64,000 bases of DNA from Candidatus Melainabacteria bacterium (GTDB lineage: Bacteria > Cyanobacteriota > Vampirovibrionia > Obscuribacterales > Obscuribacteraceae), in the NCBI GenBank assembly GCA_963847765.1, contig CAWKBA010000008.1, positions 10,643-74,642 of the forward strand, written 5' to 3'. The notes beneath the pieces were generated by a model that saw only the letters and a list, made by a program, of their open reading frames with translations, was not told the DNA's origin and did no database searches. Below, in pieces: positions 9,233 to 55,621 of the stretch. Made by a program: the position numbers and the translations under genes. Each line of letters starts with the position of its first letter. Position 1 is the first letter of the stretch.

Positions 9233-9353
9233 AACAAGAGCTTAAGATATTTAGACCAATCTGAAAAGAAAGCCACAAGTGTTACTATAATCCCTAAATA
9301 GGGCAGGTCTGTAATTGGACAAATAATCATCATTAACCGGAGGTCTATTTCCA

Positions 9354-9692: not shown

Positions 9693-9712
9693 TTGCTTGC
9701 ATCGGAAAATAA

Positions 9713-10774: not shown

Positions 10775-10831
10775 TGGGTAAAATAAAGTAAGGAAGAGGT
10801 AGCTTAATCTGGCTCCAGGTTAAATAAACCA

Positions 10832-14300: not shown

Positions 14301-14488
14301 CTCTCTACTTCCGCGACATCGCTAGAATTCTTGAGCCTGATCGTTCCGAACTAGACATTGAACGCGAATCTTTGATATTAGCCGACAAAAAATTAGTGGG
14401 CAAAGTACCCATAATAAATCTCGAAGCTATCAAAGGTTTATCCGATCCAGAAAAAGAGCCAGAAAAACCGAAAGAAAATCCCGATTAA
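11354..14488 (+). CDS. FtsH-like ATP-dependent zinc metalloprotease with three tandem AAA+ modules and one M41 peptidase domain
   Basis: 1044 aa. Walker A GPPGVGKT / GPPGVGKT / GPPGTGKT lie near 11579, 12379 and 13162. Walker B motifs are FIDEID / FMDEID / FIDEID. There are three GATN...R.GR.DR second-region-of-homology motifs, and HHEAGHAIV lies near 13825. Confidence 0.85.
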   Translation: MPPRADLKAPKSIWRKFFPFLFKAPTINPKAPTLLKELVGNERAKTEIQEVVEMLTDPSKYNATGAQVPKGMLFIGPPGVGKTLFARAIANEIGIPFFVIEGSSISGLIMGLGVLKLKTLFTKLRQFERSIIFIDEIDSMAARRKADKGFGGVADMNMTLNTLLTEMDGFYGSNMMVIGATNNDSTLDPALMRSGRMDRRIYFELPNPEERKELFRYYLNKVNADWPAIDLDELAMLTANYSPAEIAGVVNEAALIANRPNGPGKVTSAVIIQALERMSVGLERTMVGSGIQITSHDASVRLDDVIGIDDVKHDMLEIVDFLRRGDELRRIGAKIPKGILLVGPPGVGKTMLAKAIANEAGVPFYGLSGSYFINAYVGEGAEQIRALYTQARKSPAAIVFMDEIDALGGTVTDTGSQRHSALNQLLVELDGIGRSNVITIGATNVEQNLDPAFMRSGRFDRKTYIGLPDADGRKKLFKKYLKDIKLASEPDLDNLAKISVNFSGADIAAATNEAAIIAVRRGSKHVEQIDLENAVDRISVTAGHKLNTGGMNLSRVPDIDVMLDDVKGMDSAKAEAAEVVALLKHADKVAKSGLKAPKGILLVGPPGTGKTMLAKAIANEAGVPFYALSGGDFQSMWAGVGSNRVRAVYEQARRSGKPCIVFIDEIDAIGSKRGVERGGGAVQDSNKTLNQLLSELDGFGKHKVLTIGATNNADILDGALLRPGRFDRRIDIPLPNLEGREAIVKSYLKDVPYDESVNPLDVARMTVYKAGADLANIVNEAGLVAIRDGRTKIAQSDLIQAVQRVSFGMSYSGNVLRDELLHTAHHEAGHAIVSYFRNRKDRIQVLTIVPVGQALGYLWRVPKEDYHSTSKEEWMTNMEVGLGGYAAEELCYQTTTAGPCSDLDKVAYFARKMIREWGMGSFKFNVDRAFGGEYSRTSPETERQIEEEIKGIVDQCLDNVRELLRKHKDKLLNLAEALMEKETLYFRDIARILEPDRSELDIERESLILADKKLVGKVPIINLEAIKGLSDPEKEPEKPKENPD

Positions 14489-22327: not shown

Positions 22328-23361
22328 TTACGGATTAAATGCAAACAAGAAGGTCGTGACGAGATTAAAGCCGGCATGACCAATAATTGTCGTTGTCGTG
22401 TTGGTATAGCGCTTCACCAACCCCATCAGTATTGACCAGATAGTCACTTGCACTATAAATATCGGTGCATGCGCAAATTGCCCGTGGAGCATGCCATGCA
22501 ATAACGCCGCCGGCAGAATACCAAAAACAGGTTGCAGAGCGCCTCTAATCAATGTCTCTTCACCAATACCGGCACACAACGCTGTTGCCAGAGCCAGAAT
22601 AGCCGAAGGCACAAAACCGCCACCAGCAGTAAAAGTACCCGAATTGTAAAAAGAAAGCTTTGTTGCTAAGTCCTGTCCAGGTAAGTGGTGCGTGAAATGT
22701 GCCCAAATTGCATCATAAAGGAAACTGCCCAGGATTAAAGCAATACCTATACCTATTTGTTTTTGGCTTGGTTTCACCCAGCCTAATCGAGCCATGGCTA
22801 TTTTATATGGACGGGTGACATAAATGCCTACACCCAAAAGGAAAGCAAGATTAAACCTATGCCGTTGTAGGAGAGCAATTGCATAAGCATAAGAGGTATG
22901 GGCAAAGGCATGTATGGCATTTTGAAACTATCCGGCTCAATGCTCATGAGCAAATAGGCAAAAGTAGTCACATAAATGAATAAAGCCATTAAATGCGGAA
23001 AAGAGTTTGGCACGAAGATTTTTTTGCTTAAAAAATATTCGGCTGCTTTAATGTTTTTTCTGATCAGCGGCAACAATATTTGCCCGGTAATGAGCAGATC
23101 GGCTCCAGTAAATAGCCAGGAAAACCCCTTTCTCACAGGCATAAACAATATGAGAAATGTTGTCGCAACAGCAAAAACCAGGGCATTAATCGCCCAAAAA
23201 CTAATAAATAGCTCCAGAGGAGTAATTAATAAAAGTCCCTCCGCTACCGCCACAGCAACAATGACAAACCTTAAAATCCATTCCAACCAGCGCCTTTTCC
23301 TGGCCACATGGGCTAAAAGCCCTAGTAGCGCAAGGATTAAAATAAGCAAAAAATCTAACAA
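22328..23361 (-). CDS. CPBP-family (CAAX/Abi) intramembrane protease with extra N-terminal TM domain; one homopolymer frameshift as sequenced
   Basis: It has GEETLIRG (EExxxR), LLHGMLHG and HAGFN motifs. The two ORFs join if the A4 run at 22836..22839 has one more base. Confidence 0.7.
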
Positions 23362-26015: not shown

Positions 26016-27112
26016 TCAAACTATTTCTCTGCCTGATTTAGAACGAGAATATGGTGCTAAATTGACATTCGCCACCTGGGGAGGCAGGGTTTGTGTAGGG
26101 GCGCGTTGCACGCGCCCGCTTACGCCCATGTTTTCGCCCGCTCCGACCGTAAAATAGCCTGCCGCAGCTATCATAGCGGCATTGTCCGTACAAAGCGCTC
26201 GTTCAGGCAAAAATACTGGTACCGGCGACAGAGCCAGCAATTGCTGCCGCAAGGAAGAATTAGCAGCTACGCCACCAGCCAGAACTATAGCCGGCGCCTG
26301 TGTCTTTTCTGGGCACGGAGCGTTTTGTCTATCAAAGCACCAACCACCGCTTCCTGAAAAGAAGCAGCTAAATCGGCTACCGGCCAGGGTTGTTCTATCT
26401 TTTCCAGGCAGCGCCACACTGCCGTTTTTAAACCGCTGAAACTAAAATTAAAACCTGCCACTGCGGCCTTAGGAAATGGAAATCTTGTTTTGTCCCCGGA
26501 AACAGCCAGATTATCAATTGCCGGCCCGCCCGGATAGCCAAGTCCCAGTAACCGCGCCACTTTATCATATGCCTCGCCGGCAGCATCGTCAATTGTTTGC
26601 CCGATAACTTGCGCCTGGGCAAAATCATTAAAATACATAAGCTGAGTGTGCCCGCCGCTAACCAGCAAGGCTAAAAATGGTGGTGTAAGCGCAGCTTGTA
26701 GGGGCTGCTTTAGCAGCCCGTGTTCTCCGCCCGTGCCTTCGTTTTCCAGATAATTGGCACAAACATGAGCAATAAGATGATCAACACCAATTAAAGGCAA
26801 ATCCCAGGCAAACGACAGAGCTTTGGCCGCCGATAATCCTACCAACAAAGTGCCAATCAAGCCTGGTCCAATTGTGCAGGCAATACCATCCAGATCAGCA
26901 GGGCTTATTTGCGCCTGCTTCATAGCCAATTCAATCACACTATTAATGTTTTCCAGATGCTCACGGGCAGCTATTTCAGGTACGATACCGCCATAATTTT
27001 TATGCAATTCCATCTGCGACATAAGACAATTAGAGAGGATATGTCGCCCATCAGCAACCACCGCCGCTGCTGTTTCGTCACAACTGCTTTCAATACCCAA
27101 AAAAATTGCCAT
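26016..27112 (-). CDS. tsaD: tRNA N6-adenosine threonylcarbamoyltransferase, one homopolymer frameshift as sequenced, with C-terminal extension
   Basis: GIESSCDETAAAVV, GPGLIGTLLVG and LAGGVAANSSLR. The two ORFs join if the T4 run at 26305..26308 has one more base. Confidence 0.85.
26095..26119 (+). repeat. GTAGGGGC hairpin element, TTGCA-loop subtype, inside the tsaD 3' extension
   Basis: gtaggggcgcgttgcacgcgcccgc has the stem GGGCGCG/CGCGCCC. Confidence 0.8.
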
Positions 27113-30241: not shown

Positions 30242-31171
30242 TCACTTCGTGCCGCCCATCATCGGACCAAGTGCAGTCATAATGGTAATGATAGCTGGAC
30301 CTAACATAGGCGCCATAATCAACGGCATAACAAATATCATAATTACTGGAATCATCTTTACCGGTACTTTGGCTGCTTCTTCCTCTTTCTTACGTTTTAG
30401 CCGTTCGCGCAATGCTTCGCCTTGCTGTCTTAATGGATAACTGATGTCTGAACCTTTCGCTTCAGCAGCTATCAAAGCACTAGCCATGCTGATAAGTTCG
30501 TCCACTCCACAGCGCTCACCCATCTCTCTCAAGGCTATTGGTACGGATTTGGCAAATATCTTAACGTCACTAATCAACTGTTGCATTTCTGCTGCCATGA
30601 TCGGGCAGGAATCAGCCGTTTCTTTGCCAACCTTATCCACGGCCATTAAAAGACCTAGTCCTGCCTGAGCGCAGACAATCATCAAGTCAATTATGGTTGG
30701 CAATTCTCTAAGCAAAGTATTTTGCCTGGCTTTGGCACGACCACCAAGAAAAAAATTAGGGAAATACCAGCCCACACCTACTGCCGGTATACACATAAAA
30801 AGCATCATCGGACTACCGGAAGCGGATAATATGCCGGTCAAAAGAATAATAGCTATAAAACTTGCTTTTATGCCCATGTATATGGCCAGGTGAGCAGGAG
30901 TGCGGTAATTAGCTTGTGTCAAAAGTTCAACAGTACGCCTATCCGCAACTGCCGGCATTACGCTCAGCACCAGTTCTCCAACTGTTCGCATCAGAGATAG
31001 TAAAAGGGATTCTTGTGGTTTGCCGGCCGCTGAATCTTGAGAAGCCTTGCGCGGGCGTATCCTCACCGCATAAGAGTCAACATATTGAGCAAAAACCGGA
31101 CGCATTAATAAAATTAGCGCCCCGCCTACTCCCAAGAAAGTTAATATGCCGACTATAAATGTAGATCCCAA
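30242..31171 (-). CDS. tadC: Tad pilus platform protein TadC (T2SSF domain)
   Basis: 309 aa polytopic protein with a T2SSF-like core (LPTIIDLMIVCAQAGLGL), placed after tadB. Confidence 0.8.
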   Translation of the reverse strand: MGSTFIVGILTFLGVGGALILLMRPVFAQYVDSYAVRIRPRKASQDSAAGKPQESLLLSLMRTVGELVLSVMPAVADRRTVELLTQANYRTPAHLAIYMGIKASFIAIILLTGILSASGSPMMLFMCIPAVGVGWYFPNFFLGGRAKARQNTLLRELPTIIDLMIVCAQAGLGLLMAVDKVGKETADSCPIMAAEMQQLISDVKIFAKSVPIALREMGERCGVDELISMASALIAAEAKGSDISYPLRQQGEALRERLKRKKEEEAAKVPVKMIPVIMIFVMPLIMAPMLGPAIITIMTALGPMMGGTK

Positions 31172-31177
31172 AGTAAG

Positions 31178-32023
31178 TTACACCTCAAAAGTAGTCATTC
31201 TGATCAAGATATAGGCACCTATAAATTCCCAACCTATTAAAACAAAGAGGATGACCCGCGCTACCGGATGATTAAGAAACGGAATAATATATCCAGGAGA
31301 AATTGCATAAGTCATAAGGATTATGGCATATGGTATGGAACCAATAAATATAGCCGTCATTTTCCCCTGCGCTGTTAGAGCATTCATATAGTCACGCAAT
31401 TTGAAACGCTCTCTTATTGAATCGGCAATTGTAGCTACAACATCAGCTAAATTACCACCGACGTCCTGACTGATAAAAATAGCCTGGGACAGTAATTTAA
31501 AATCGGGGGTATTAATTCTGGCAGCCATTTCGTGCATGGCGTCTCTAAATGCTTTTCCCAACTGCAAAGAAACAAGCCCTCGCTTAAATTCCGAACGTAT
31601 GGGATCAGTGCCTGTTTCAGCCAACACTTTGAAAACTTCTATAACGGGCGACCCTGCTCTGAGCGCACTAACCATGGTTTCCAGAGTCTGGGGCAGCTGT
31701 TCCATAATCTTACTTTGCCGTTTTGTGGCTAGCTGCCCTATATAAGCAATAAAACCACCCGCTCCTAAAAACAATCCGGCAACAAATGCAATCACATTCA
31801 GCTCAGGCACATAGAATAATGCTAATCCGGCCAAAACAACTCCAGTGATAAGAGAAGTAACTATCCATTGTACCTTCATCTCATTATATTTAGCCTCAAG
31901 ACCAGCCTGAGCTAATTTTTGGGCAAGATAATTCTCATGCCGAGTGGTTAGAAAAATATTCACATCTTCCTGATCGTGATATTTCAGCTTCATTTTTTTT
32001 CGATGCTGATTCAAACGAAGCAT
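31178..32023 (-). CDS. tadB: Tad pilus platform protein TadB (T2SSF domain)
   Basis: 281 aa with the T2SSF core (LPQTLETMVSALRAGSPV), placed after cpaF. Confidence 0.8.
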   Translation of the reverse strand: MLRLNQHRKKMKLKYHDQEDVNIFLTTRHENYLAQKLAQAGLEAKYNEMKVQWIVTSLITGVVLAGLALFYVPELNVIAFVAGLFLGAGGFIAYIGQLATKRQSKIMEQLPQTLETMVSALRAGSPVIEVFKVLAETGTDPIRSEFKRGLVSLQLGKAFRDAMHEMAARINTPDFKLLSQAIFISQDVGGNLADVVATIADSIRERFKLRDYMNALTAQGKMTAIFIGSIPYAIILMTYAISPGYIIPFLNHPVARVILFVLIGWEFIGAYILIRMTTFEV

Positions 32024-32167
32024 TTCATCGGACCAGGCCCGCGAACAAACTTAAGCGTGACCACCCCCGCTAGAATAACAACGACAAAAATTGATATTGC
32101 AATGCTTTCCATAAGCTACATGCTACTATACATCAGCCTCAAAGACCCGGATAAACCCACCGCCTTT

Positions 32168-33820
32168 TTATCTAAGCCATTCCAGTTTGAACGGCACAGA
32201 CTCTTGTTCGAGCTGTTCTAGGAATTTTGGCGGCAATCCAGAGCCAACATGGCGACATTTGAAAAATCCGCGCGCGTCTCTGCCCTCTCTTTCCAAATGG
32301 AATAGGGAGCTGATGGCAATGGTTTCACCTTCCATACCGGTTATTTCACAAATTTCCGTTACTCTCCTTGTACCATCTTCCAGACGGCGGATTTGCACAA
32401 TAACTTGAATTGCCGAGGCAATTAACTCGCGTGCTGCTTTGGCCGGCATATCCATACCAGCCATAAGAATCATATTCTCCAGACGTTTTGTGCAATCTCG
32501 CGGCGTGTTGGCGTGAATAGTCGTCATAGAACCCGAGTGACCAGTGTTCATTGCCTGCAACATATCAAATGCCTCTTCACCCCGGCATTCTCCCATAATA
32601 ATCCTATCCGGTCTCATCCGTAGTGTGTTAACTACAAGCATGCGTTGTGTTATCTGCCCTTTGCCTTCGGTGTTAGCCGGCCTTGTTTCCATCCTCACCC
32701 AGTGATCGTGTTGCAAGCGCAGTTCAGCTGCGTCTTCGATTGTAATAATGCGTTCACGTGGATTAATGTGAGCAGAAAGAGCATTTAACAGAGTTGTTTT
32801 ACCGGAGCCGGTACCACCGGATATGATTAAATTGATGCGCCCCTTAACGCATGATTTGAGCACTTCCGCCATCTGTACAGACATAGCTCCTTTTTCTACG
32901 AGCTGTCCAAGAGACATGGCATTGGCGCCGAAACATCGTATCGTGATCGTCGGACCATCGATTGTCACTGGTGGAATAGTGGCATTAACACGTGAACCAT
33001 TGGGTAAGCGAGCATCAACCATTGGCGAGTTATCATCTAATCTTCTTCCTAGCGGTTGAATAATTTTATCGATTGTCTGGCGTAAATGTCTTTCATTTTC
33101 AAAAGCTACAGCCGTCTTCTCCAGCCTGCCATGACGTTCAACATAGATATTATTCACACCATTAACACAAATATCTCCAATACTGGGATCGCGTAAAAGT
33201 GGTCCTAAAGGGCCAAAGCCAAAGACTTCGTCCAAAATATTTTGCAGCAGTATACCCTTTTCCATCATGGTTAAAGGGGCTGGATCCGAATTGACAATTT
33301 CACGTATGCGGGCACGCACCTGGGCTTGCGTATCTTCAGAAATATTGGTTAACCTTGAAGTATCAAGCTCACGGCGCAGTTGATCAATAATGAATTTTTC
33401 ACGCTCTCTGATAAGCTGCTGGTTAGCGGAAAACTTGGCTCCCATATCTCCACTAACAGCTGCGTTTTCTGCTGCACCACCATGCCCATAGTTAGCGTCT
33501 TCTTTTGCATCAATGCGTTCTATCTCGGCTCGGCTTGGTCCCATGCCAGCTTCCACGGCAGACCCACCTGGACGGCTGGCACCACCAGCAATACCAGTAG
33601 CCGTTCCACCGGGTCTCTGCATGCCACTTTGTCCAGGCGGTGGCGCTGCTGTTTTACCGCCAACACCTGTAGAACCTTGCTGCCCAGATAATCCTGTTGC
33701 TTGCTGTTGGGCCGGCACGACATCTGCACCCTGTCTTTGCCTGACTAATTGCCCCATCAACGATGAGGCGGGTCTTGCCGGCAAATTCTGGTCTTTTCTT
33801 TCCTCACCCATAAAACTCAA
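32168..33820 (-). CDS. cpaF: Tad pilus secretion ATPase CpaF/TadA with about 110-aa low-complexity N-terminal extension
   Basis: Walker [12 protein letters not shown], Asp box [10 protein letters not shown], Walker B and His box (IIMGECRG...[14 protein letters not shown]). The N-terminus is G/A/P/Q-rich. Confidence 0.9.
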
Positions 33821-33837
33821 TCACCATCCTTAAACCT

Positions 33838-33863
33838 GTAGGGGCGGGGCTTGTCTCCGCCCG
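33838..33863 (+). repeat. GTAGGGGC hairpin element (cpaE-cpaF intergenic)
   Basis: gtaggggcggggcttgtctccgcccg has the stem GGGCGG/CCGCCC. Confidence 0.8.
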
Positions 33864-33878
33864 TGTTCTCACCCGCCG

Positions 33879-35069
33879 TCATCGTTTGAAGAACGCCGGC
33901 AATTTGAAACCTTTAGCCTTTTCAGTAGTAGTATTATCTTTTTGTTGTGTAATAAGAAGCTGTTCGCCTCCGGCTAATCTTCTTGCCAGCGAGTCAAGTG
34001 ATTTCCCCAGAGCCGATTGCGTGGGAGAAATTTGCCCTTGATTATTCGCCCATTTTGCTGTTTTGGCATCATTAGGTACTTCATGAAAAATCGGATAATT
34101 TAAACTGGCACGGCATTCACTCAAAACGTCCTGCGGCTGCCACTCAGAGCGATTAATTATCAGAAGTAGCTTTTCCTGATTGTAATGCGCCTTAAACGTA
34201 TCCAGGCATTTGCGCGCATTAACAATCGCCGCCCAGTTGTATTCTGTAATAACCAGCACCTGATCTGCCAGATCTAAGGTGGCTATGGCTCGTTCATCTA
34301 ACAAGTTTTTGGGCAGATCGACAAGAGTAAAGCGAAATTCCTGCTTGGCCGTATAAAGAATTTCCTGAACCTGAGCAGCATAAATATCACCAATGTCTTC
34401 CAGATCCGGCGGGGCAGCAAGAACACTCAATTTTTCATCATATCTGGTCATTAAGTTGCGCAAATAAGTGGCATCAAAGTTAGTATGTGAAAAATCAATC
34501 GTGCTCAAACTGAAAGATGGTTCCAGGTTTAAATACTGAGAAACCATGCCGAATTGCAAATCGAGATCGACAATACAAGTTTCACCGTATTTGCCCAGAT
34601 AACCAGCCAAGTTTGTGCAAATTGTAGTGGCACCAATACCACCAGTAGGGCTAAAAATTGCAATTACCTTGCCGGCAGCAGTTGATATCGATTCACTTTG
34701 ATGCTTAAGTTGAATACTCTGCACCGCAGCAGGTAAATCAGTCCGCCACCGCTCAGCATCAAGGAAATCAGACGCCCCTAATCTATAGGCTGTTCTAATC
34801 AATTCCGGATCAGGCACTTCATAACTGACAAAGAAATAAACATCAGGAAAGGTTTCTCTTAATTCAGCCAGCAGTGACAGCCCCCGTACCGGCGCCGGAC
34901 TCAGTTCAATCCAAACCAGTTTAGGGTGCAGACTGCCTATTTGCTCTCGGGCCATACTGCCAGATACCGTACTAACCAGGGCTAACGAAGGCTGGCTATG
35001 AATCAGATCTTCTATGGTCTGGCGCTTATCCAAACCAGCATCACAAATTAACACTGTAGTCAGTTTCAT
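33879..35069 (-). CDS. cpaE: TadZ/CpaE-type pilus assembly protein (atypical receiver plus ParA/MinD-like ATPase fold)
   Basis: The N-terminus is receiver-like, followed by a deviant P-loop (IAIFSPTGGIGATT). Confidence 0.75.
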   Translation of the reverse strand: MKLTTVLICDAGLDKRQTIEDLIHSQPSLALVSTVSGSMAREQIGSLHPKLVWIELSPAPVRGLSLLAELRETFPDVYFFVSYEVPDPELIRTAYRLGASDFLDAERWRTDLPAAVQSIQLKHQSESISTAAGKVIAIFSPTGGIGATTICTNLAGYLGKYGETCIVDLDLQFGMVSQYLNLEPSFSLSTIDFSHTNFDATYLRNLMTRYDEKLSVLAAPPDLEDIGDIYAAQVQEILYTAKQEFRFTLVDLPKNLLDERAIATLDLADQVLVITEYNWAAIVNARKCLDTFKAHYNQEKLLLIINRSEWQPQDVLSECRASLNYPIFHEVPNDAKTAKWANNQGQISPTQSALGKSLDSLARRLAGGEQLLITQQKDNTTTEKAKGFKLPAFFKR

Positions 35070-35133
35070 ATTTTAATAGCCTTAATTCTCCCCAGCTATA
35101 GAATTTGTACCCAGCCTGCCGTAGATGAATCGT

Positions 35134-36081
35134 CTACCCGCTGGGCACAGAGACTACATCTTTGGCGCTGCCTTTCCAGACTTCTATTTCATGCATAGGA
35201 GGAGGCGGTGGAGCTGCCGGAGCCATAGCTCCTGGCATTCCTGCTCCCATATCGGGACCACCAGGCAATGGTGGTGGTGGTAGTGAACTTGGTGGAGGCA
35301 GGGCGGCTATATCATCGCCTTTACCACCTCCAGCAAACATAGAAGTAACATCCACAGTAGCCACCGGCTTGCGGTCCTTATCATTTCTCAAGGTCAGATA
35401 AAGTTTGCTGGCGCTGATGGCCTTAATTAATTTATTGGCATCTTCAGGGCTCACACAAACAGTTACAGAACTAGAAGGAATGGCTGTAGATTGCCCAGGA
35501 TTTTTCTGATAAAGCTGCCCAACAGCAATTACTTCCACGTCTGATAATATTGGTGCTGCTTTTGTTTCAGCCCCGGCACCGACCATAGCAATAATATCTA
35601 CACGGCTATCCGGATTAACAAAACCAGCAACTCCAGAATTATTGTCCACACCAAAGGTTAGAGCTCGCATACCTTCTTTAAGTTTGGCTTCAAAGCCCAG
35701 TGAAATACCTTGTGGAGCCAGATCATGCTGGGAAACTATCTGTCCGGCCAGAATGCCGTATTTAGCAATCCGTCCAGTAGCCAAGCTGGCGGAAGTAATA
35801 GCGTCTTGTGGTATTTTGCTTTGTTCAATTTCCCTTTCTTCTAAAGCTTCGCTTGGTATAGCTTGTCCTTCAGGTATATCTTTAATTGTATAAACGACTT
35901 TGCCCTTGGCATTAGCTTTTTGCTCCAGTTCAGCTTTGCGTGCTTCGTAGGTCTTGGTTTGCTCCGAAATAATTCCAGTGACCCCCATAGCAATAACACC
36001 TGCCACGACAACAATAATTACTAAAAGCAGCGCAATCGGTATTCTGGAAAGCTGCAATATTAGCGCCTGTAATGGATTCAT
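35134..36081 (-). CDS. cpaB: Flp pilus assembly protein CpaB/RcpC with Pro-rich C-terminal tail
   Basis: N-terminal TM, SAF-like and RcpC-like regions. The tail is LPPPSSLPPPPLPGGPDMGAGMPGAMAPAAPPPPP. Confidence 0.75.
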   Translation of the reverse strand: MNPLQALILQLSRIPIALLLVIIVVVAGVIAMGVTGIISEQTKTYEARKAELEQKANAKGKVVYTIKDIPEGQAIPSEALEEREIEQSKIPQDAITSASLATGRIAKYGILAGQIVSQHDLAPQGISLGFEAKLKEGMRALTFGVDNNSGVAGFVNPDSRVDIIAMVGAGAETKAAPILSDVEVIAVGQLYQKNPGQSTAIPSSSVTVCVSPEDANKLIKAISASKLYLTLRNDKDRKPVATVDVTSMFAGGGKGDDIAALPPPSSLPPPPLPGGPDMGAGMPGAMAPAAPPPPPMHEIEVWKGSAKDVVSVPSG

Positions 36082-36420: not shown

Positions 36421-36597
36421 CTATTGTGAGCCCTTGGTTATAGAACTTAATTGTCCTATGACTGAAGAAAACGCATTCTGTATAGATGTACTAAAGGACC
36501 CTTGCAAGCTAAAGATAATACTAATAACCAGAGCTATGAAAGCTAGAATGGCTCCATATTCAGTAATACCCTGTCCGGATTCATCAAAAAAAAGCAT
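36421..36597 (-). CDS. flp: Flp-family type IVb pilin (copy 1)
   Basis: The Flp motif is ESGQGITEYGAILAFIALVISIIF. An RBS-supported ATG at 36617 is out of frame unless the A8 run at 36586..36593 has one more base. Confidence 0.8.
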   Translation of the reverse strand: MLFFDESGQGITEYGAILAFIALVISIIFSLQGSFSTSIQNAFSSVIGQLSSITKGSQ

Positions 36598-36907
36598 TTT
36601 GCTAAGCCGGTAATCATAACAATCTCCTGAAATAATCATAACTAGATCACACAAGCCGGTCTAATTATCAAGGGCTACTTTTATGCGGAGAATTAAAAGG
36701 CAGTCTTTTAACGAGAACTACTCTGGTAAAAATTTAACAAAAGAGCAATTAGAACCTAAATAGCCTTAGCTTCATTATATATAATTGCCTGGAAAGCTCT
36801 ATATTTCTTAAATATTCTCTTTCCGTATGTTATTGCCGCACAGCACTACGTTCAGATCAAGCATTTTGATAAAAGCCTGATTGATGAAATAGTTAAACTG
36901 TTAAACC

Positions 36908-37125
36908 AAAGCCTGTTCTGAGCTTACGAGCCGCCGGCTATAGAATTTAACTGTCCGCCGACCGAAGAAAACGCATTTTGCAATGCAGCTTGGAACGACC
37001 CCTGCAAACCAAAGATAATGGCAATAATAAGCGCTACGAAAGCCAGAATGGCTCCGTACTCAGTAATGCCCTGTCCAGACTCATTAGTAAAAAAGTGTTT
37101 TAAGTTAATAAGCATAACAACCTCC
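36908..37125 (-). repeat. Left arm of 218-bp inverted repeat (contains flp copy 2 with RBS and 3' flank)
   Basis: Its reverse complement matches 38868..39085 with about 11 mismatches by my hand alignment. Confidence 0.9.
36924..37115 (-). CDS. flp: Flp-family type IVb pilin (copy 2)
   Basis: MLINLKHFFTNESGQGITEYGAILAFVALIIAIIFGLQGSF..., with AGGAGG 6 nt upstream of the ATG. Confidence 0.85.
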   Translation of the reverse strand: MLINLKHFFTNESGQGITEYGAILAFVALIIAIIFGLQGSFQAALQNAFSSVGGQLNSIAGGS

Positions 37126-37350
37126 TGAAAAACACCAATAGCTAGACTAAACAATTCAGCCTAATTATCAAGGGCTACTTTTATTTGAGAATTTAATAGC
37201 TGTCTTTTAATGAGGACAACTCTAGTAAAGATTAAACAAAAAATCAATATAGAACCTTATAGCCCTAGTTTTATTATATATAGCCTTGCTTGAAAAGTTT
37301 TCTTTTTTAAACATTTCCTTTTCGTATCTTATTGCTATACATTGCCCGGT

Positions 37351-38598
37351 TCAGGACAGGCTTTTTGATAGAAGCTTTGGCTGGCATATGATTTTCAGCA
37401 CCCGAGAATACGCCCATATTACAGTTGTTGTTAAAAATAATGGCTGAGCTAAATTATGCATGAACAGGACAATCAATATATATAAGTCAACCAAAAACCA
37501 TAACAGCAATAATTCGCGCCTGAGGCTTTGATTAGATTTCAAAACAGGATTTTCAAAAACAATCATACCGGCAATAGCAAAAATACTAAGATCGTAATAG
37601 CGCAAATATGGCAAAATCAACGGCAAAATCAGTATGCCAAGCACAAAGATCAAGGACATAACACCGGTATTGTTCATAGGCATTCTTTTAACTAGCTGCC
37701 GGCAAAAAAATAGAGCCTGCAAGAATATGATCATTGCCAGCAAGTAAATCACAAAATCAAGTGCTGGCTGCCAGTGAGCCGGGAAAAGCGTTGTGATCGC
37801 CTCATGCAATGAGCTAATTAGAAATGTCTTGTGCTGGCAAGTAGGATCTCGCCAAATTTCAGCATCCAGTTTTAGAGAAGACAACCATTTATTGGCTACA
37901 ACCGGTCCAAAACAAAAAATACTGCTGAGGCTTACAACAAGCATTCCAACAATGAAACTGGCTAAACAGCTCAATTTTTTTGACCTGGTGAAAGCAGCAA
38001 TAAAGAAAACAGGTACGGCTATAAATTGAGGTTTGAGCAATAACAAAGACCAAGCCAGCCCAGCTTTAACAGGCTTTTCTTTAGCATAGTAATAATAACC
38101 AAGGGCCAGAGGCAGACAAAGAATTATCAGACCAATCTGTCCGATAAATAAAGTGTGGATGATAGGCAAATAGAGAAGGCTGTCCCAAAAATAGGCTAAA
38201 TAGTTTCCACCATTTAACGAGGCCATAAGTGCTGAACATAATAAAAGAGCTAACAAGGAAAGCACCTGCCAAACTATAAATGCCGTTTGTGGCGATAAAT
38301 GGCTAAAAGGCTCAAACAAAAGTGCAATTAAAGGCGGGTATTGAAAAAATGGTTTTGCATTTGCTGCCAGGTGCGGCAAGATTTGGTGAGCGCAACGATC
38401 AAATGGTGCTTGAGCAAACGATGTTTGGTTTTGATCCGGATAAAGGTCGGTAGTTTTACCTTCTTTGACCATACAACCAGCAACATAAAAGGCTGCCAGG
38501 AAATCTGTTTGCTGGTTAACGTCAGCACAGGCAAAAGCACCACAGGTAACAAAAACCAGGAGTAAGACAGCGATTATTCTTAAAACAATACTTTTCAT
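37351..38598 (-). CDS. GT87/DUF2029-like polytopic glycosyltransferase (GT-C fold)
   Basis: 415 aa with many TM helices. The N-terminal pattern DFLAAFYVAGCMVKEGKTTDLY...FFQYPPLIALLFEPF is typical of DUF2029. Confidence 0.6.
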   Translation of the reverse strand: MKSIVLRIIAVLLLVFVTCGAFACADVNQQTDFLAAFYVAGCMVKEGKTTDLYPDQNQTSFAQAPFDRCAHQILPHLAANAKPFFQYPPLIALLFEPFSHLSPQTAFIVWQVLSLLALLLCSALMASLNGGNYLAYFWDSLLYLPIIHTLFIGQIGLIILCLPLALGYYYYAKEKPVKAGLAWSLLLLKPQFIAVPVFFIAAFTRSKKLSCLASFIVGMLVVSLSSIFCFGPVVANKWLSSLKLDAEIWRDPTCQHKTFLISSLHEAITTLFPAHWQPALDFVIYLLAMIIFLQALFFCRQLVKRMPMNNTGVMSLIFVLGILILPLILPYLRYYDLSIFAIAGMIVFENPVLKSNQSLRRELLLLWFLVDLYILIVLFMHNLAQPLFLTTTVIWAYSRVLKIICQPKLLSKSLS

Positions 38599-38867
38599 TT
38601 TTTTGGCAACAACAACTGAATTATTAAATTCAAGACATTAAATTCTCGAAAATCACCTTGGCAATTTCAACTTGGCTAAGATAGAATGAAAATAACTGTA
38701 TTCATTTAACTAGAAATAGTTGGCTGGATTCAGCTTTTGAAAATTAGCTTCTTTACTATAATTACTACCTTAGTTTTTCAAAGTTCTACGGCTTCTTAAT
38801 TGCTAAATTGACATTACACCTTAACAGTTAATGTTGTTTAGTGAAAATAAGATATAAATGGGGGATC

Positions 38868-39085
38868 GGGAGGTTGCTATGTTTACTAACTTAAAGCACT
38901 TTTTTACTAATGAGTCTGGACAGGGCATTACTGAGTACGGAGCCATTCTGGCTTTCGTAGCACTTATTATTGCCATTGTCTTTGGTTTAAAGGGGTCGTT
39001 CCAAGCTGCATTGCAAAATGCGTTTTCTTCGGTCGGCGCTCAATTAAATTCTATAGCCGGCGGCTCGTAAGCTCAGAACAGGCTT
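38868..39085 (+). repeat. Right arm of 218-bp inverted repeat (contains flp copy 3)
   Basis: See the left arm. The identity extends 15 nt past the stop codon (taagctcagaacaggcttt). Confidence 0.9.
38879..39070 (+). CDS. flp: Flp-family type IVb pilin (copy 3)
   Basis: MFTNLKHFFTNESGQGITEYGAILAFVALIIAIVFGLKGSF..., with GGGAGG upstream of the ATG. Confidence 0.85.
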   Translation: MFTNLKHFFTNESGQGITEYGAILAFVALIIAIVFGLKGSFQAALQNAFSSVGAQLNSIAGGS

Positions 39086-39129
39086 TTTAAGAATTACTGT
39101 TTGACACTTGGTCAATCAGAGGGGGGGAT

Positions 39130-40626
39130 TTATTGTTTCATTGACCGGTGATGAACAATAATTTCCGCTTGCTCATTTTTAAAAGCTACCTGCCAGGCAG
39201 CATCTTTTTCAAGATACTGGCATAGCCTGGTCGCGGGAGAGAGAAAAATCCAATTAATTTTGTACTTGATTAGCAATTCTCGCCAGGTGGGATTACAGTC
39301 AGCAATTGCTAAATAATCCCGTACGGTTTGCTGGGAGTAGATATCAAAGCGCGTATCAATAAAGAGCTTGACTGGGTTTTTTCCATTCCACATAAGCACA
39401 TCGCCAAATTCAGGATCATTAAAAAGATTCCCTGATGGGTTATGCACAGCGATATAATCCAGGGCTTGAAACGGCGGTACAAAGACTCTAGAGATTGCCG
39501 GAATAGTCGGATGGCTGAACAGCAGCATACTCAAACTGCCTGCTATTGCTGATAGCACGATCAGGGCATGTATATTCTTTTGTTTAGTTCCAGCCGGTGT
39601 CTCGGTTTTGATGTGAAACCCACTGCCAATCAACGGCAGCATTAATAGCAAACCAAAGGTAATGAGACGTTGAAAAAGTATTCCTAAAACCATGCCTACT
39701 ATGGCGATGAGCATATAAATAAAATCACTTCCTGTTAATGCCGGTCGAAACCCGCGCCTAATGCGAAACAAGGCTAATAATGAAAGACCGCCAAAAGAAC
39801 AAAGTAGTGGCAGATTATGACTGGCTAGAGTTGTCGTGAATGGCTGCAGTTCACCTATGTAGCGATTAGCCGGGTGAAAATAAAGATGTGGTATGTACTG
39901 CCAGAGTAAAATACCATATGGCGTTATCAATGAGGCCAATAGACAAAAAACAAAACTGATCGACCAGGTGGTCAGCAAAGCCCGACGGTTGCCACACAAA
40001 TCTCTGAGGCTTAACACAAGCAAAAGCAAGATGCCGATTACAAAACCACTATGCAGGTTGGCCCAGAGAACCATTATTACCGCCAGGACAGTCGCCAGTT
40101 TCCAATTTATCCTATGAGAATCTGTTCTCATTTCCTGCCTGACGACAATCTCAAGGTACACAGCTAAAAATAAATAGGAGAATATTTCCGGCTTTAGCAA
40201 CATGCGTTCAATAGAACCAAGGGCAACACCAATTGTAATCAGTCCGGCACGTAATGACCCTAACTTAAAACATTCCAGTATGCGCCAGGGCATAATGATC
40301 AGAGAATATACAAGTATGCTGCAGGCAAAAGTCACCAATCCCATCGTTCCAGCAACTGTGATTATTGCAAAGAAAATAACTTCCGTTAGCCATTGATAAA
40401 CGACCAGTCCTTGAGGAGCAGAATACATAGCAAAAGTGTATGAAAAGGGATCAGTAACCGGCAACATCTTATGCTGGCAAATCCAGCGCCCCATAGACAG
40501 GAGAAAACATGTGTCCGGCTCGCGAAGTGAAAAAGCCGCTACGCCTATACCGTAAATGAAAGCTAATGATATAGTTACCAGTATGGCAATAGCAAAATTT
40601 CTTTTAGGCATCGCCCATACTTCCAA
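39130..40626 (-). CDS. Large polytopic membrane protein, GT-C-like putative glycosyltransferase
   Basis: 498 aa with more than 10 TM helices. It is a paralog of the divergent neighbour, sharing LLSMGRWI...DPFS near the N-terminus and DPEFGDVLMW...IDTRFDIYS near the C-terminus. Confidence 0.5.
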   Translation of the reverse strand: MEVWAMPKRNFAIAILVTISLAFIYGIGVAAFSLREPDTCFLLSMGRWICQHKMLPVTDPFSYTFAMYSAPQGLVVYQWLTEVIFFAIITVAGTMGLVTFACSILVYSLIIMPWRILECFKLGSLRAGLITIGVALGSIERMLLKPEIFSYLFLAVYLEIVVRQEMRTDSHRINWKLATVLAVIMVLWANLHSGFVIGILLLLVLSLRDLCGNRRALLTTWSISFVFCLLASLITPYGILLWQYIPHLYFHPANRYIGELQPFTTTLASHNLPLLCSFGGLSLLALFRIRRGFRPALTGSDFIYMLIAIVGMVLGILFQRLITFGLLLMLPLIGSGFHIKTETPAGTKQKNIHALIVLSAIAGSLSMLLFSHPTIPAISRVFVPPFQALDYIAVHNPSGNLFNDPEFGDVLMWNGKNPVKLFIDTRFDIYSQQTVRDYLAIADCNPTWRELLIKYKINWIFLSPATRLCQYLEKDAAWQVAFKNEQAEIIVHHRSMKQ

Positions 40627-40684
40627 AAGGTAATTGATCCCATCTCTTCATCAAATATAACGGTTAACTGTCAATCTGCCAACT

Positions 40685-42130
40685 ATGCAAGCTGATCAAA
40701 TCAGCCAAAGAGATAAACTGTGTCTGCAAATCAGCTTGCTGTTTTTTTTGCTGACACTTATTTATTTTGGCATGACGATATGCCGGCTTTGTCTCTGTCA
40801 ACGAGATATATACTACCTGCTCTCCATGGGACGATGGATTATCGAACAAGGCGGGTTGCCGCAAACAGATCCCTTTTCCTGGACATATTCTGTTTATCCA
40901 AACGGCTGCCCGTTTGTAGTGCATCAATGGCTGACTGATATCATCTTTTTCGCTGCGCTAAAAATGCTTCGTGCCAATAGTCTGGTACTGATTACGGCAA
41001 CAACTCTATGTCTGAGTTTTCTTATCCTGATTCTTCAGACAATGAAGCTTTTGCGCCTTGGTCAGACAGTGACTCTTTGCCTTTTATCGCTTTCTTTACT
41101 TGCTGCAACCGCACATCTGCAGGTACGCCCGGAAATTTTTTCCTATGTTTTTATTTCACTCTACTATTTTATTTTGCTCAAAGCGGATCATATGGGCAAA
41201 TTAACGACAGAAAGCCTGATCATTCTCACCTTGAGCATGATCCTCTGGTGTAATCTGCATAGCGGGTTTGTGGCTGGACTGATTATTATCTGCTTTTGGT
41301 TATTATTTTCTCTTATCGATCAGATCGTGTTTCACAAATCAACATTGAACAATAGCTATTTTTTTGCACTGCCGCTCTGTTTTACAGCCACATTGATTAA
41401 CCCGGTTGGTTGTAATTTATGGTTATATCTTCCTGCCCTATATTTTTCACCAATAAGTCATTATATAGACGAATGGCGGCACATTGATTTAAGTTTCTTC
41501 CGCTATGACCCATTCTACGCGCTGCTAATTTTAATAACTATTTTTGCTCTTCTTGCCCACAGAATTGTTAGCACCGGCAAATTAAAAGATACAGGATTGA
41601 AACCCATTGCCCTTGGTGCGATAGCAATTGTAATTAGCTTTTGTGTTTGCCGCTTTATGAATATTGCCTCTATGTCTTTGATTATAGCCATAGCCATGCT
41701 CTTGAATAAATTAAACCAGGCAAAAAATCAAAATGAAAATTCACCGCCGCAGTCTCCTTCATACGTTTATAGTCTATCTTTTGGCATATCAAGCACTTTC
41801 ATTGTTCTTGCCACCACCATAATTATCATGGATAGATTTCCAGCTAAGATTGCCGTTAATTACGACGAATTTTCCATGCCTGTTGGTGCAATCGATTTTC
41901 TAAAACAGCATCCGCAGAAAGGGCGACTTTTAAACGATCCTGAAAATGGTGATGTTCTTGTGTGGTATTTGCAACCTTGCCCTAAAATTTTTGTTGACTC
42001 GCGTTTTGATTTATACAGTCCCGCCATGTTAGATAAATACTTTAAATTAATAGCGTGTAATGCCGGCTGGCAAGATGATTTGCAGTCATTCAATATTGAC
42101 TGGCTTTTTGTAGGACTGGTTATCCGATAA
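40685..42130 (+). CDS. Large polytopic membrane protein, GT-C-like putative glycosyltransferase (paralog)
   Basis: 481 aa with LLSMGRWIIEQGGLPQTDPFS and DPENGDVLVW...VDSRFDLYS. Confidence 0.5.
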   Translation: MQADQISQRDKLCLQISLLFFLLTLIYFGMTICRLCLCQRDIYYLLSMGRWIIEQGGLPQTDPFSWTYSVYPNGCPFVVHQWLTDIIFFAALKMLRANSLVLITATTLCLSFLILILQTMKLLRLGQTVTLCLLSLSLLAATAHLQVRPEIFSYVFISLYYFILLKADHMGKLTTESLIILTLSMILWCNLHSGFVAGLIIICFWLLFSLIDQIVFHKSTLNNSYFFALPLCFTATLINPVGCNLWLYLPALYFSPISHYIDEWRHIDLSFFRYDPFYALLILITIFALLAHRIVSTGKLKDTGLKPIALGAIAIVISFCVCRFMNIASMSLIIAIAMLLNKLNQAKNQNENSPPQSPSYVYSLSFGISSTFIVLATTIIIMDRFPAKIAVNYDEFSMPVGAIDFLKQHPQKGRLLNDPENGDVLVWYLQPCPKIFVDSRFDLYSPAMLDKYFKLIACNAGWQDDLQSFNIDWLFVGLVIR

Positions 42131-42279: not shown

Positions 42280-43215
42280 ATGCCAAAGCTTAAAATCTGG
42301 TTTGTTTCGCCTTGCTTTTTTGATGTGGAGTCATTCAAAGAGTTAAGAAAGCGCTGCTTAGATATGGTTCATAAATCTCTGCCGGAACTGGAGCCAAAGT
42401 TTGTCGTAATTGATGATTCTGGCGGACAAGATAGTCAAGCGATCGGATTAAGTGATGAGCCATCAACTACTGTTCTTGTGCCGCCTTATAACATTGGGCA
42501 CCAAAGCGCGATTGTTTTTGCCTTGCGGTCGATTTTGCCGGATATAGATCCAATGGACTATATCGTTACTCTTGATTGTGATGGAGAAGATAAGCCGGAA
42601 GATATTCCATCGTTGATAGAACCACTTTTTACTAAGCCAGATGATGTATACGCAGTTGCGCTTGCTCAAAGAACAAAAAGAAGCGAAACACTCAAATTTA
42701 AAACACTCTACTTCTTTTTCAAAATTTTCTTTTCTATATTGACTGGTACCAATATAAAGAACGGCAATCTCGCAGCATTTAGAGGACAATTTATAAATGG
42801 TGTCATTTTTCATCCTTACTTTGATTACTGTTATTCTTCCTCTTTGGTTGCTCTGCCTTTGAAAAGAAAAAATATTTCAATAGCCCGCGGCTCCAGATAT
42901 TTTGGCAAAAGTAAAATGACTTTGATCAGCCTGATTGGACATGGTTTCAGAATGCTCTTGCCATTTTCAGAACGGATTGCAATTAGAGGGATCATTCTTT
43001 CTGGCGGTTTGTTATTGCTAAGCACTGCCGGCTTGCTGTTTACCATAGTCTTGTGTAAAGTTCACCAGTACCCTCGTGATTGGCTTATTACAATTGAAGT
43101 TCTATCCTGTTTTTTCAGTATTTTTCTATTTATAATTTCCTTTATCTTTTTGCTACATTTCATCAAACCAGAGCTATCAGCCTGCGCAACTGGACTGGTT
43201 CTTCTTCGGGGGTAG
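42280..43215 (+). CDS. GT2 polyprenyl-phosphate glycosyltransferase, GtrB/DPM1-like, with two C-terminal TM helices
   Basis: VVIDDSGGQD, the DxD context TLDCDGEDKPEDIPSLI, and two C-terminal hydrophobic helices. Confidence 0.75.
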   Translation: MPKLKIWFVSPCFFDVESFKELRKRCLDMVHKSLPELEPKFVVIDDSGGQDSQAIGLSDEPSTTVLVPPYNIGHQSAIVFALRSILPDIDPMDYIVTLDCDGEDKPEDIPSLIEPLFTKPDDVYAVALAQRTKRSETLKFKTLYFFFKIFFSILTGTNIKNGNLAAFRGQFINGVIFHPYFDYCYSSSLVALPLKRKNISIARGSRYFGKSKMTLISLIGHGFRMLLPFSERIAIRGIILSGGLLLLSTAGLLFTIVLCKVHQYPRDWLITIEVLSCFFSIFLFIISFIFLLHFIKPELSACATGLVLLRG

Positions 43216-53143: not shown

Positions 53144-53623
53144 ATGAGCTTTACAACAATGACCCGTTATTCACATCGCAAACCAGCTCAATCAAATGCC
53201 GGATCTACCTTAAGTGAAATTCCGCCTGCTCTTTTCTTGCTTATTTTCTTTGCTGTTTTCCCTGTCGTTAATCTGATAATTATGGGACTTACTTATTCTT
53301 CTTGCGCTCTCCTTAACAATTTGGAGTTAAGAGAAGCCGCCAGAACGCCGAACTCACAATTATCGGCTGTCATACTTTCTGTACAGCAAAATTGGCAATC
53401 AGGCACATTGGGTCAATTGACCGGGCTAGTCAGCCCTCCGGAAACAGATGTCACTTATAGTAATAATGGCTCGGATACTTATGTCACTGTGTCCACTGTT
53501 TTCACAGCCAAATCATTATTCAACATTCCGTTTTTTAAAGGCATACCCGGTCTGGGAGGACCATGGACTTATACAATTGCCGGCAATAGGGTCCTGGAGG
53601 ATCCAAGCTATGCCACCTTTTGA
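53144..53623 (+). CDS. TadE-like pseudopilin
   Basis: An N-terminal hydrophobic segment follows GSTLSEIPPALFLLIFFAVFPVV. It sits next to other TadE/G-like genes. Confidence 0.55.
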   Translation: MSFTTMTRYSHRKPAQSNAGSTLSEIPPALFLLIFFAVFPVVNLIIMGLTYSSCALLNNLELREAARTPNSQLSAVILSVQQNWQSGTLGQLTGLVSPPETDVTYSNNGSDTYVTVSTVFTAKSLFNIPFFKGIPGLGGPWTYTIAGNRVLEDPSYATF

Positions 53624-54032
53624 AAAACCGGCGAGCAGGCATAAGCGGTCTGGACAGGCTCTAATTGAAACAGTAGCGGGACTAGTGTTGCTAATTCCCC
53701 TGGCACTGTTTTCTTATGATTTAACCTATATTTTAATCTCCAATCAAAATAACGAACGTCTGGCTGAAAATGCTGCCCGCGCTGCTGCCAATCATCTCAC
53801 CCTTTTGAGTGCAAAACAGGCAGCCCAGCAGGCTGTCGACAATTTTAATCAATCGACCGGCAACAACGGCACCCGCCTCGCCGATTTTAGCTATGATCAA
53901 GGCAGCAGCGGCCAGGTCGCACTGACTATACGCATGGAAGTTATATTGCCTGTTCCGTTTGGTTCCTGGAAAACAATGATCATACAGGCCCAATCAATTG
54001 TGCCCATTGTCGCTATCCCTGCCCCCACTTAA
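53610..54032 (+). CDS. TadE-like pseudopilin
   Basis: An internal ATG overlaps the upstream stop. GQALIETVAGLVLLIPLALFSYDL matches the TadE N-terminal motif. Confidence 0.65.
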   Translation: MPPFEKPASRHKRSGQALIETVAGLVLLIPLALFSYDLTYILISNQNNERLAENAARAAANHLTLLSAKQAAQQAVDNFNQSTGNNGTRLADFSYDQGSSGQVALTIRMEVILPVPFGSWKTMIIQAQSIVPIVAIPAPT

Positions 54033-54037
54033 TATCA

Positions 54038-55621
54038 ATGAAATCCATGAAAGAAAATAGATCCAAATTAAACAGACAACGGCAAAGTACAGGGGCATCA
54101 CTGGCCTTAGTAGCTGTTTGCGCTGGATTGATTATCCTCTTTCTGATCGTTTGTTTTCAGATGGCTCAACAAATGGGCGGTCTGCAAGAATTAAATTACA
54201 CTGCTGATTCAGCTGCACTAAACACAGCCAAGCGATCTATGGAAGTTAAAGTAGGGACTGGTCCTCTTTATAGTGATTGCGCTGATTCAACCGGTATGGT
54301 TGGACTGGCAAATATCAATCGTGTCTGGGGCAAGGCTTTTCTTATCAATGCCAATGTTGAAGAAATGATGGCTAATCAAGAACTGACCGATCAGGCCACC
54401 AATTCCGGTAATAATGCTTTTGCTGCCGCTCAACAAATAAATGATAATCTCTGCAGTGAAGTAGGCTCTATACCAATACTTAATTCGTTTTTTGATCAAA
54501 TTGCCGGCCAGCGATTGGCCAAGCTCTTAGGCAATGCTACATTGCAGCCTACAGATAAGATTGCCTGTGCCGGGTTCTGGCGCAGTTCTTTGGTCTATCG
54601 CGGTGACGAAAGTAATCTTGCTTTCCGCAGCAATCAAATTCCCGGTCCACTAAATTCTCAGATACAAGGCATCAGTACTGCCGGACAAACTTTTTTACAA
54701 GGCTATACACCTCTGCAAGCCAATGATAAATCTTTCTATTTTGTTCCTTTCCATCCAGTTGAAATGCCGCATTTAATTTCAGAAACTCTTTTTAAACAAA
54801 ATACCGCGGACATCAACCAATTGGACAATATAGTTAACCCATTGCCCAATGCCTTCGCTTGTTATGGACAGAAACCAATGAACACCAATGCTTTTGCCAT
54901 TGCCAATCCACAAAAACAATATAATTTGTCCATTCCTCATGCCTTTGCCTCAATTAATCTCATTAATACCGCTTATTGGATTGTGCAAGATAAACAAGTC
55001 AATGTGACAACTTACGGCTACACACCTGAAACACAATGGGGTGCACGCCAGATACCGCTGGGGGGCACAAACAATAATCACCTGGATGGTTATGCTTCTT
55101 TAGGTAATGAGTTTTCAGGCAATACGCTCTGGGCGGCTGTGCAATCAGTTCAGGGAGATTCGTCGCAAGCACTGGCACTGCTGCTGCAAAAAATCCAGGA
55201 AATAAAAGGAGATTTTACACAGGCTAATTTACAGCAATTCCTCCAGCAGCAAACTCTTGTTCCTGATGTCACCACTTATATAATCTATCCTAATTATACA
55301 AGCCCCGACAATACCAATCCCAGCATGCAAATTGCCCCTGTTTCAGCAAATTCAGCACGAACAACATTACCTCATTGGCTAAATGCCAGTGCCTCTAATG
55401 AAGGACAAACAAAAACCGTTTTGAGTCAAGAGCCAACTCAGGATCAGCCTAACTTTGACTGGGAAATGGTTACTGGCCCGGGTTACCACGCCAGTGGTAA
55501 TTGGACAATGGTAGAAGGCGCATTAGATTGGCAGCCTGGTACAGGTACAAACCAAACGCTGGGGCAGTTGTCTGTAGTCCACAACACTCGTTGTTATTTC
55601 ACCGCTGCACCAAATAATTGA
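54038..55621 (+). CDS. TadG-like large pseudopilin or pilus-associated protein
   Basis: 527 aa with an N-terminal Tad_N-like segment (GASLALVAVCAGLIILFLIVCFQMAQ). Confidence 0.6.
   Translation: MKSMKENRSKLNRQRQSTGASLALVAVCAGLIILFLIVCFQMAQQMGGLQELNYTADSAALNTAKRSMEVKVGTGPLYSDCADSTGMVGLANINRVWGKAFLINANVEEMMANQELTDQATNSGNNAFAAAQQINDNLCSEVGSIPILNSFFDQIAGQRLAKLLGNATLQPTDKIACAGFWRSSLVYRGDESNLAFRSNQIPGPLNSQIQGISTAGQTFLQGYTPLQANDKSFYFVPFHPVEMPHLISETLFKQNTADINQLDNIVNPLPNAFACYGQKPMNTNAFAIANPQKQYNLSIPHAFASINLINTAYWIVQDKQVNVTTYGYTPETQWGARQIPLGGTNNNHLDGYASLGNEFSGNTLWAAVQSVQGDSSQALALLLQKIQEIKGDFTQANLQQFLQQQTLVPDVTTYIIYPNYTSPDNTNPSMQIAPVSANSARTTLPHWLNASASNEGQTKTVLSQEPTQDQPNFDWEMVTGPGYHASGNWTMVEGALDWQPGTGTNQTLGQLSVVHNTRCYFTAAPNN

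Follow-up and report, generated by a model that had tools for sequence, protein, structure and literature searches.

Gene conversion as a likely cause of near identity in an old divergent pair of Flp pilin genes from a Melainabacteria genome

We analyzed a stretch of 64,000 nucleotides (nt) from a Candidatus Melainabacteria genome assembly (GCA_963847765.1, contig CAWKBA010000008.1, positions 10643 to 74642), hereafter the window, in which two nearly identical Flp pilin genes at a Tad pilus locus, flp2 and flp3, form an inverted repeat around a glycosyltransferase gene. The best explanation for the locus as a whole, to which we assign a probability of roughly 70%, is an old divergent flp pair kept alike by patchy gene conversion. 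An initial annotation of this DNA had proposed both gene conversion between the repeat arms and an inversion switch resembling those of phase or antigenic variation. The former is strongly supported by identities and site patterns in a comparison with a syntenic relative; the latter found no support.

A repeat search identified the flp2/flp3 pair as the only inverted repeat of at least 60 nt in the window. Its left arm (36908-37128, minus strand) and right arm (38866-39086, plus strand) measure 221 nt each, are 95% complementary and lie 1737 nt apart. Their alignment revealed 12 differing positions and perfectly identical blocks of 65, 48 and 29 nt. Each arm extends from the ribosome-binding site (RBS), 13 nt before the ATG, across the entire coding sequence (CDS) of flp2 (36924-37115, minus strand) or flp3 (38879-39070, plus strand) to 16 nt past the stop codon. 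At both edges similarity drops abruptly, and the sequences flanking the arms are unrelated to each other. These values agree well with the hand alignment of the initial annotation, which had counted about 11 mismatches in 218 nt and placed the limit 15 nt past the stop. Its description of the geometry also held: the genes are divergent, with their 5' ends pointing into the enclosed segment (37129-38865), which holds the flp2 upstream region, a gene for a GT87-family membrane glycosyltransferase (37351-38598, minus strand) and the divergent intergenic region common to GT87 and flp3 (38599-38878). The repeat is real. L001, an independent contig built from short reads (Logan ERR11630394) and the only other contig recovered for this strain, matches window positions 37068-38926 with 100% identity, which rules out an assembly artifact for the inner segment and for the two junctions where it meets the arms. 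At either end the contig stops inside an arm, exactly 30 nt past the final arm-specific variant, as expected when a k=31 assembly graph breaks at a true repeat (k-1=30). It confirms the sequence but carries no information on orientation.

The nearest relatives of the window were Melainabacteria (Vampirovibrionia) metagenome-assembled genomes (MAGs). In the closest of them, L010, cpaB and cpaE are ~80-83% identical in DNA to their window counterparts. The gene order in L010 comprises cpaE, cpaB and an flp gene (P0007) on one strand, a 549-nt spacer and, on the other strand, a second flp gene (P0004) followed by homologs of the window membrane-protein genes M498 and M481 and by guaA; a GT87 gene between the flp pair is absent. 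A single colinear match connects L010 3220-5033 to window 38869-40611, spanning flp3 through M498. Therefore, flp3 is the positional ortholog of P0004, and the divergent pair is older than the lineage split. Despite this age, copies resemble each other more closely within than between genomes. Codon-aligned nt identity was 96% for the window flp2/flp3 pair; the corresponding values were 81% in L010 and, for a tandem pair, 88% in L011. Between window and L010 copies it was only 73-76%, with positional orthologs at 74-76%. A duplication that predates the split, together with identity that is higher within genomes than between them, is the pattern of concerted evolution.

Individual sites tell the same story. 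In a four-sequence test comprising window flp2, flp3, the L010 operon copy and the L010 divergent copy, 29 sites were species-specific, meaning that both copies of one genome agree and differ from both of the other. Five were paralog-specific (flp2 equal to the L010 operon copy, flp3 to the L010 divergent copy) and one was discordant. The paralog-specific sites, which include those encoding an I/V and a Q/K difference, border the identical blocks (65, 48 and 29 nt), and the resulting mosaic is compatible with conversion in several short tracts. Old duplication, within-genome homogenization, surviving paralog-specific sites and unrelated flanks jointly argue for repeated short-tract gene conversion. 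The initial annotation had named arms that evolve independently without conversion as one part of its refuting case; the comparison with L010 revealed concerted evolution instead.

We propose that the head of the Tad operon in this lineage has long been occupied by two old paralogous flp genes in back-to-back arrangement, with flp2 heading an flp-cpaB-cpaE-cpaF operon and flp3 pointing the opposite way, beside a putative GT-C gene. Homologous recombination, presumably RecA-mediated, would repeatedly copy short stretches between the arms in non-crossover events and thereby maintain 95-96% identity. The paralogs cease to align at the RBS on one side and shortly after the stop codon on the other, and there identity would end, while a few paralog-specific sites would survive. 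In this lineage GT87 lies between the pair, upstream of the operon copy, and flp2 and a third gene, flp1, would have arisen later, when a unit made up of the GT87 3' end, the intergenic region and flp was duplicated in tandem. Inversion by crossover between the arms appears to be rare and not a programmed switch.

Several points weigh against this explanation. The site analysis rests on one syntenic relative, L010, with a fragmented and frameshift-rich assembly. Five paralog-specific sites versus one discordant site are suggestive only; in a one-sided binomial test, a 6-versus-1 split would yield p=0.06. Neither flp1 nor L010 offers a clear match for the 16 nt that both arms share beyond the stop codon, which would place the end of at least one transfer slightly outside the old homology. 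Furthermore, conversion and crossover inversion share recombination intermediates, and the occurrence of conversion makes occasional inversion more plausible. The evidence on ancestral orientation given below is also compatible with a minority of flipped molecules in a population, and ongoing inversion may occur.

Three independent lines indicate that the assembled orientation of the enclosed segment is the ancestral one. The first concerns flp1 (36421-36597, minus strand), a more diverged Flp gene with 68-71% nt identity to flp2 and flp3. It is arranged in tandem with flp2 as part of a 500-nt repeat unit of ~76-80% identity, upstream region included, corresponding to ~20% divergence since the duplication. 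The flp2 copy of the unit (36928-37375, minus strand) consists of the flp CDS, ~235 nt of upstream sequence and the very end of GT87, with the final 22 nt of its CDS and the stop codon. A recognizable remnant of this GT87 3' end persists upstream of flp1, at 36852-36876, within the flp1 copy of the unit (36428-36876, minus strand). Hence, at the time of the tandem duplication GT87 would already have immediately preceded flp on one and the same strand. Second, the closest GT87 homolog (51%, in L014) has an flp gene 166 nt downstream on the same strand and, thus, the same GT87-to-flp order. Third, paralog-specific sites 5' of the 65-nt block, which would move with the segment, and those 3' of it, which would stay, share the phase seen in L010, suggesting no net crossover there since the lineage split. 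As flp upstream regions did not align between genomes, the orientation of the inner segment is not directly comparable with L010.

Among alternatives, the one that survives best is an invertible switch, in which recombination between the arms would flip 37129-38865 and give rise to subpopulations with swapped promoters and leaders and altered GT87 read-through. We regard it as improbable. The geometry is suitable, with 5' ends facing the segment and arms sharing identical blocks of 65 and 48 nt, lengths sufficient for RecA-dependent exchange. Gene conversion shows that the flp arms do recombine, and sap switching in Campylobacter fetus is RecA-dependent with the same geometry. However, no recombinase gene was found in the 64 kb: recombinase, integrase and transposase domains were absent from the window open reading frames (ORFs) of at least 120 amino acids (aa). 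Any inversion would, therefore, have to use general homologous recombination. The arms are likewise whole genes of 221 nt and not the short sites of a switch driven by a site-specific recombinase, and the assembled orientation seems ancestral on the three grounds above. The predicted effect of an inversion is also small. All three mature-residue differences lie 3' of the 65-nt block, and a crossover there would leave each mature pilin in place; the exchange would be confined to the upstream regions and leader residues 2-3. The upstream region of GT87 would move along with its gene, and because flp1 retains a flp2-type upstream region of its own ahead of cpaB, the operon would not be switched off. 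A 90% protein cluster contained flp2 and flp3 only, with no chimeras, a weak argument given that essentially one genome was sampled, and a literature search returned no paper linking Flp pilins to inversion. On its anatomy, a phase-variation switch is unlikely as a programmed or consequential device, and the missing recombinase domain, the apparently ancestral orientation and the small predicted effect leave that part of the initial annotation unsupported. We also give low odds to a related proposal in which the flp2/flp3 arms act as a RecA-type invertible element that would occasionally exchange pilin regulatory regions and re-route GT87 read-through, creating Tad-pilus heterogeneity.

Recent inverted duplication would make flp3 a new, lineage-specific copy of flp2 and explain the 95% identity by young age. 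Consistent with this idea, flp2 and flp3 are highly and uniformly alike except at the 12 sites, and both flp1 and L010 lack the 16-nt tail that the two arms share after the stop. Nevertheless, L010 carries an flp gene at the exact flp3 position and orientation, beside the M498 homolog. Divergent flp genes also occur in L003, where two lie directly upstream of the M481 homolog, and L050 contains a truncated flp remnant convergent with its M498 homolog. In addition, the five paralog-specific variant sites carry the same alleles as in L010. Because flp already held the flp3 position in the common ancestor, recent duplication has little to recommend it, and we rejected it on the basis of the L010 positional ortholog and the shared paralog-specific sites. 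Replacement of a resident paralog by a copy of another is, moreover, gene conversion, so this scenario collapses into the explanation that we favor. Lastly, an assembly artifact through a mis-join or collapsed repeat is scarcely credible and was rejected in view of the 100% match of the independent contig L001, which ends as expected for a k=31 break at a true repeat; while the assembly has likely indel errors, as in a tsaD gene split into two overlapping ORFs, the arms are distinguishable at 12 sites and their outer junctions are supported by L010 synteny.

Concerted evolution by conversion of inverted paralogs is known from duplicated bacterial tuf genes and from palindrome arms, and the literature search listed reviews on conversion between inverted repeats. 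As in those cases, the flp copies are closer within a genome than to their positional orthologs, identity is confined to the gene body, flanks are unrelated and differences form a mosaic. The flp arms differ in being very short (221 nt), in encoding pilin subunits and in enclosing an unrelated glycosyltransferase gene. The locus is, therefore, best filed as a fresh example of a kind already known, paralogous inverted surface-protein genes kept alike by conversion. A second comparison is offered by the sap locus of C. fetus, where a promoter-bearing segment between opposed S-layer homologs undergoes RecA-dependent inversion. Common to both loci are divergent homologs with conserved 5' parts facing the segment and a geometry that needs no dedicated site-specific recombinase. 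However, a single promoter in C. fetus serves one of several antigenically distinct proteins, whereas flp2 and flp3 each have their own upstream region, differ at only three mature residues and are accompanied by a third copy that keeps the presumed operon promoter; no alternative orientation was seen. Pilin genes are also associated with inverted repeats in recombinase-driven inversion systems, the Moraxella tfpQ/tfpI locus with Piv and the R64 shufflon with Rci. Their inversions take place at short specific sites, depend on a recombinase encoded next to the locus and swap C-terminal coding segments; in the flp case, neither a recombinase nor a short crossover site was found.

The three genes encode predicted Flp prepilins. 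The flp2 product (63 aa, leader MLINLKHFFTNESGQG followed by ITEYG) is encoded by the first gene of a flp2-flp1-cpaB-cpaE-cpaF-tadB-tadC string, and that of flp3 (63 aa, leader MFTNLKHFFTNESGQG followed by ITEYG) by a gene that diverges from flp2 and converges on the GT-C gene M498. ESGQG/ITEYGAILAF, in which the leader ends in Gly and the Glu-Tyr Flp motif follows, occurs in all three copies and in every relative; the prepilins are short, with a predicted mature part of 47 aa. Scores against Pfam PF04964 were 19.9 bits for flp2 (E=6e-4), 17.0 for flp3 and 20.1 for flp1, all below the curated cut-off of 32.2. Close relatives carry a precomputed PF04964 match or are named 'Flp pilus assembly pilin Flp' by JGI. 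The genomic context is that of Flp genes, located with Tad assembly genes: cpaB directly downstream and then two T2SSF proteins. Translation of the CDSs reproduced the residue differences listed in the initial annotation, LI/FT at leader positions 2-3 and I/V, Q/K and G/A in the mature part. With 3 of 47 mature residues differing, the two are not clearly different alternative proteins. The flp2 protein is identical to P0001, and exact-protein look-ups of flp2, flp3 (two start choices) and M498 yielded no match. In flp1, the start codon that aligns with the flp2/flp3 starts and bears an RBS is out of frame, with a 2-nt length difference near homopolymer runs. An internal in-frame ATG, ~27 nt from the RBS (region 36421-36654), gives MLFFDESGQG/ITEYG. 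This start frameshift could reflect either a real degenerating copy or an assembly indel.

The enclosed glycosyltransferase of 415 aa matched Pfam GT87 (PF09594) with E=8e-19 and 68.7 bits (cut-off 25), covering profile positions 1-237 of 237, which bears out its earlier designation as GT87-like. A metagenome scan of the JGI collection with the GT87 protein recovered no close relative, and a profile scan of metagenomes detected 31 GT87 loci. Only one of these had an flp gene within 4 kb (L019, the contig of L014), and the flp-GT87-flp arrangement occurred in 0 of 31. Regarding regulation, flp2 and flp3 each have their own upstream region, and the flp2-type region is duplicated ahead of flp1. 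The intergenic region common to GT87 and flp3 bears no relation to the sequences upstream of flp1 and flp2; its sigma-70-like matches at 38658-38687 and 38821-38848 (plus strand) are consensus matches only. Promoter-like matches appeared on both sides, and promoter and terminator scans gave weak consensus matches only. An Rfam scan of 30-46 kb returned no match.

Among the relatives, the stretch between guaA and cpaB varies. It contains one flp gene in L002, two in tandem in L007-L009 and L011 and divergent copies in L003, L004 and L010; the divergent arms of L003 and L004 are only 70-75% alike. Between guaA and flp, we additionally observed perfect or near-perfect tandem repeats with a period of 111-113 nt in L002 (6275-6627), L003 (6033-6447) and L005 (4920-5083). 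Such an array is absent from the window. In L005, cpaB is also present as two tandem paralogs at 8644-10942, whose products share 67% and 85% identity with the window protein and whose upstream regions are duplicated as well.

In the window, the minus-strand order is GT87, flp2, flp1, cpaB with an RcpC domain, cpaE-like, cpaF, two T2SSF genes (tadB and tadC) and a DUF192 gene. The Tad assembly genes downstream of flp1 occupy 30242-36081: cpaB at 35134-36081 (PF16976, E=1e-21), the cpaE-like gene at 33879-35069, cpaF at 32168-33820 and tadB plus tadC at 30242-32023. The names cpaE and cpaF derive from gene order and high conservation in relatives, not from the Pfam scan. Neither a secretin nor a prepilin peptidase was identified among the ORFs scanned. 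Some 15 kb from the operon, a weak TadE/G-like match (E=0.014) at 53448-54032 lies beside ORFs without an assigned family, and this region (53144-55621) may represent a second set of Tad-related minor pilin genes.

Beyond flp3 follow M498 (39130-40611, minus strand), M481 (40685-42130, plus strand), a GT2 enzyme (42280-43215, plus strand), a 734-aa protein with a spermine-synthase-like domain and guaA. M498 and M481 are paralogs (~29% identity) without a Pfam or NCBIfam family. The GT2 enzyme resembles polyprenyl-phosphate sugar synthases (ArnC-like), with scores far under equivalog cut-offs. An AlphaFold model of the membrane protein M498, built with 50 homologs, reached a predicted local distance difference test (pLDDT) value of 93.9. 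Its top 16 matches in the PDB were all GT-C enzymes (STT3, DPY19, AglB, PglB and ArnT), with E values from 2e-7 to 4e-3 and TM-scores on the query of 0.42-0.60. The modeled multi-helix membrane domain and periplasmic domain superpose on these solved enzymes. The M498/M481 group, moreover, shares a nearly invariant Asp in a D-P-D-T-like motif of the first loop. M498 is, thus, a predicted glycosyltransferase of the GT-C fold. Proteins of this type adjoin divergent flp genes in several Melainabacteria genomes; the group is located at 39130-42130 in the window, 3504-6530 in L010, 6448-7887 in L003 and 2040-5068 in L050.

The flp genes, therefore, sit in an island of putative lipid-linked-donor glycosyltransferases comprising GT87, M498 and M481 plus the GT2 enzyme, a gene context that suggests Flp pilin glycosylation by the surrounding enzymes. 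In Pseudomonas aeruginosa, glycosylation genes stand beside the pilin gene: TfpO/PilO acts with a C-terminal Ser acceptor, and TfpW is a GT-C arabinosyltransferase. The window resembles this arrangement in having pilin genes directly beside lipid-linked-donor membrane glycosyltransferases (GT87, the GT-C protein M498 and the GT2 synthase-like enzyme). It differs in that it involves Flp (Tad, type IVc) pilins, Melainabacteria and GT87 plus a GT-C group that has no named family. A C-terminal Ser was present in every Flp pilin read (window, L002-L011 and P0001-P0012) except P0011, and the C-terminal tails are rich in Ser and Ala, possible O-glycosylation acceptors. This terminal residue recalls the C-terminal Ser acceptor of the P. 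aeruginosa 1244 pilin.

Elsewhere in the window, tsaD (26016-27112) is divided between two overlapping ORFs that cover Pfam profile positions 1-216 and 214-263, a probable frameshift which suggests that the assembly contains indel errors. ORFs overlap in comparable pairs at 17796-19237 (PmbA/TldD-like) and 22328-23361. An FtsH-like protein of 1044 aa (11354-14488) contains three AAA modules followed by Peptidase_M41, the modules appearing as internal direct repeats ~790-800 nt apart. A 300-nt direct repeat of 82% identity spans 9371-10188. Its second copy overlaps a thioredoxin-domain gene (9713-10216), directly after which lies a second gene of this type (10217-10774).

The locus presents a clear case of small-scale concerted evolution in a pilin gene family. 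It also cautions against taking an inverted repeat for a switch solely because its arms are gene-sized and enclose a cargo gene. If RecA-type inversion did occur here, a Tad/Flp locus would for the first time be known to vary by inversion, and its demonstration would give Tad pili a mechanism of variation that needs no recombinase, with a small predicted phenotypic effect. A more promising lead than the repeat is the association of flp with GT87 and with GT-C proteins lacking a named family, which can be tested for Flp glycosylation. In these non-photosynthetic cyanobacterial relatives, Flp genes are embedded in a variable island of putative lipid-linked-donor glycosyltransferases.

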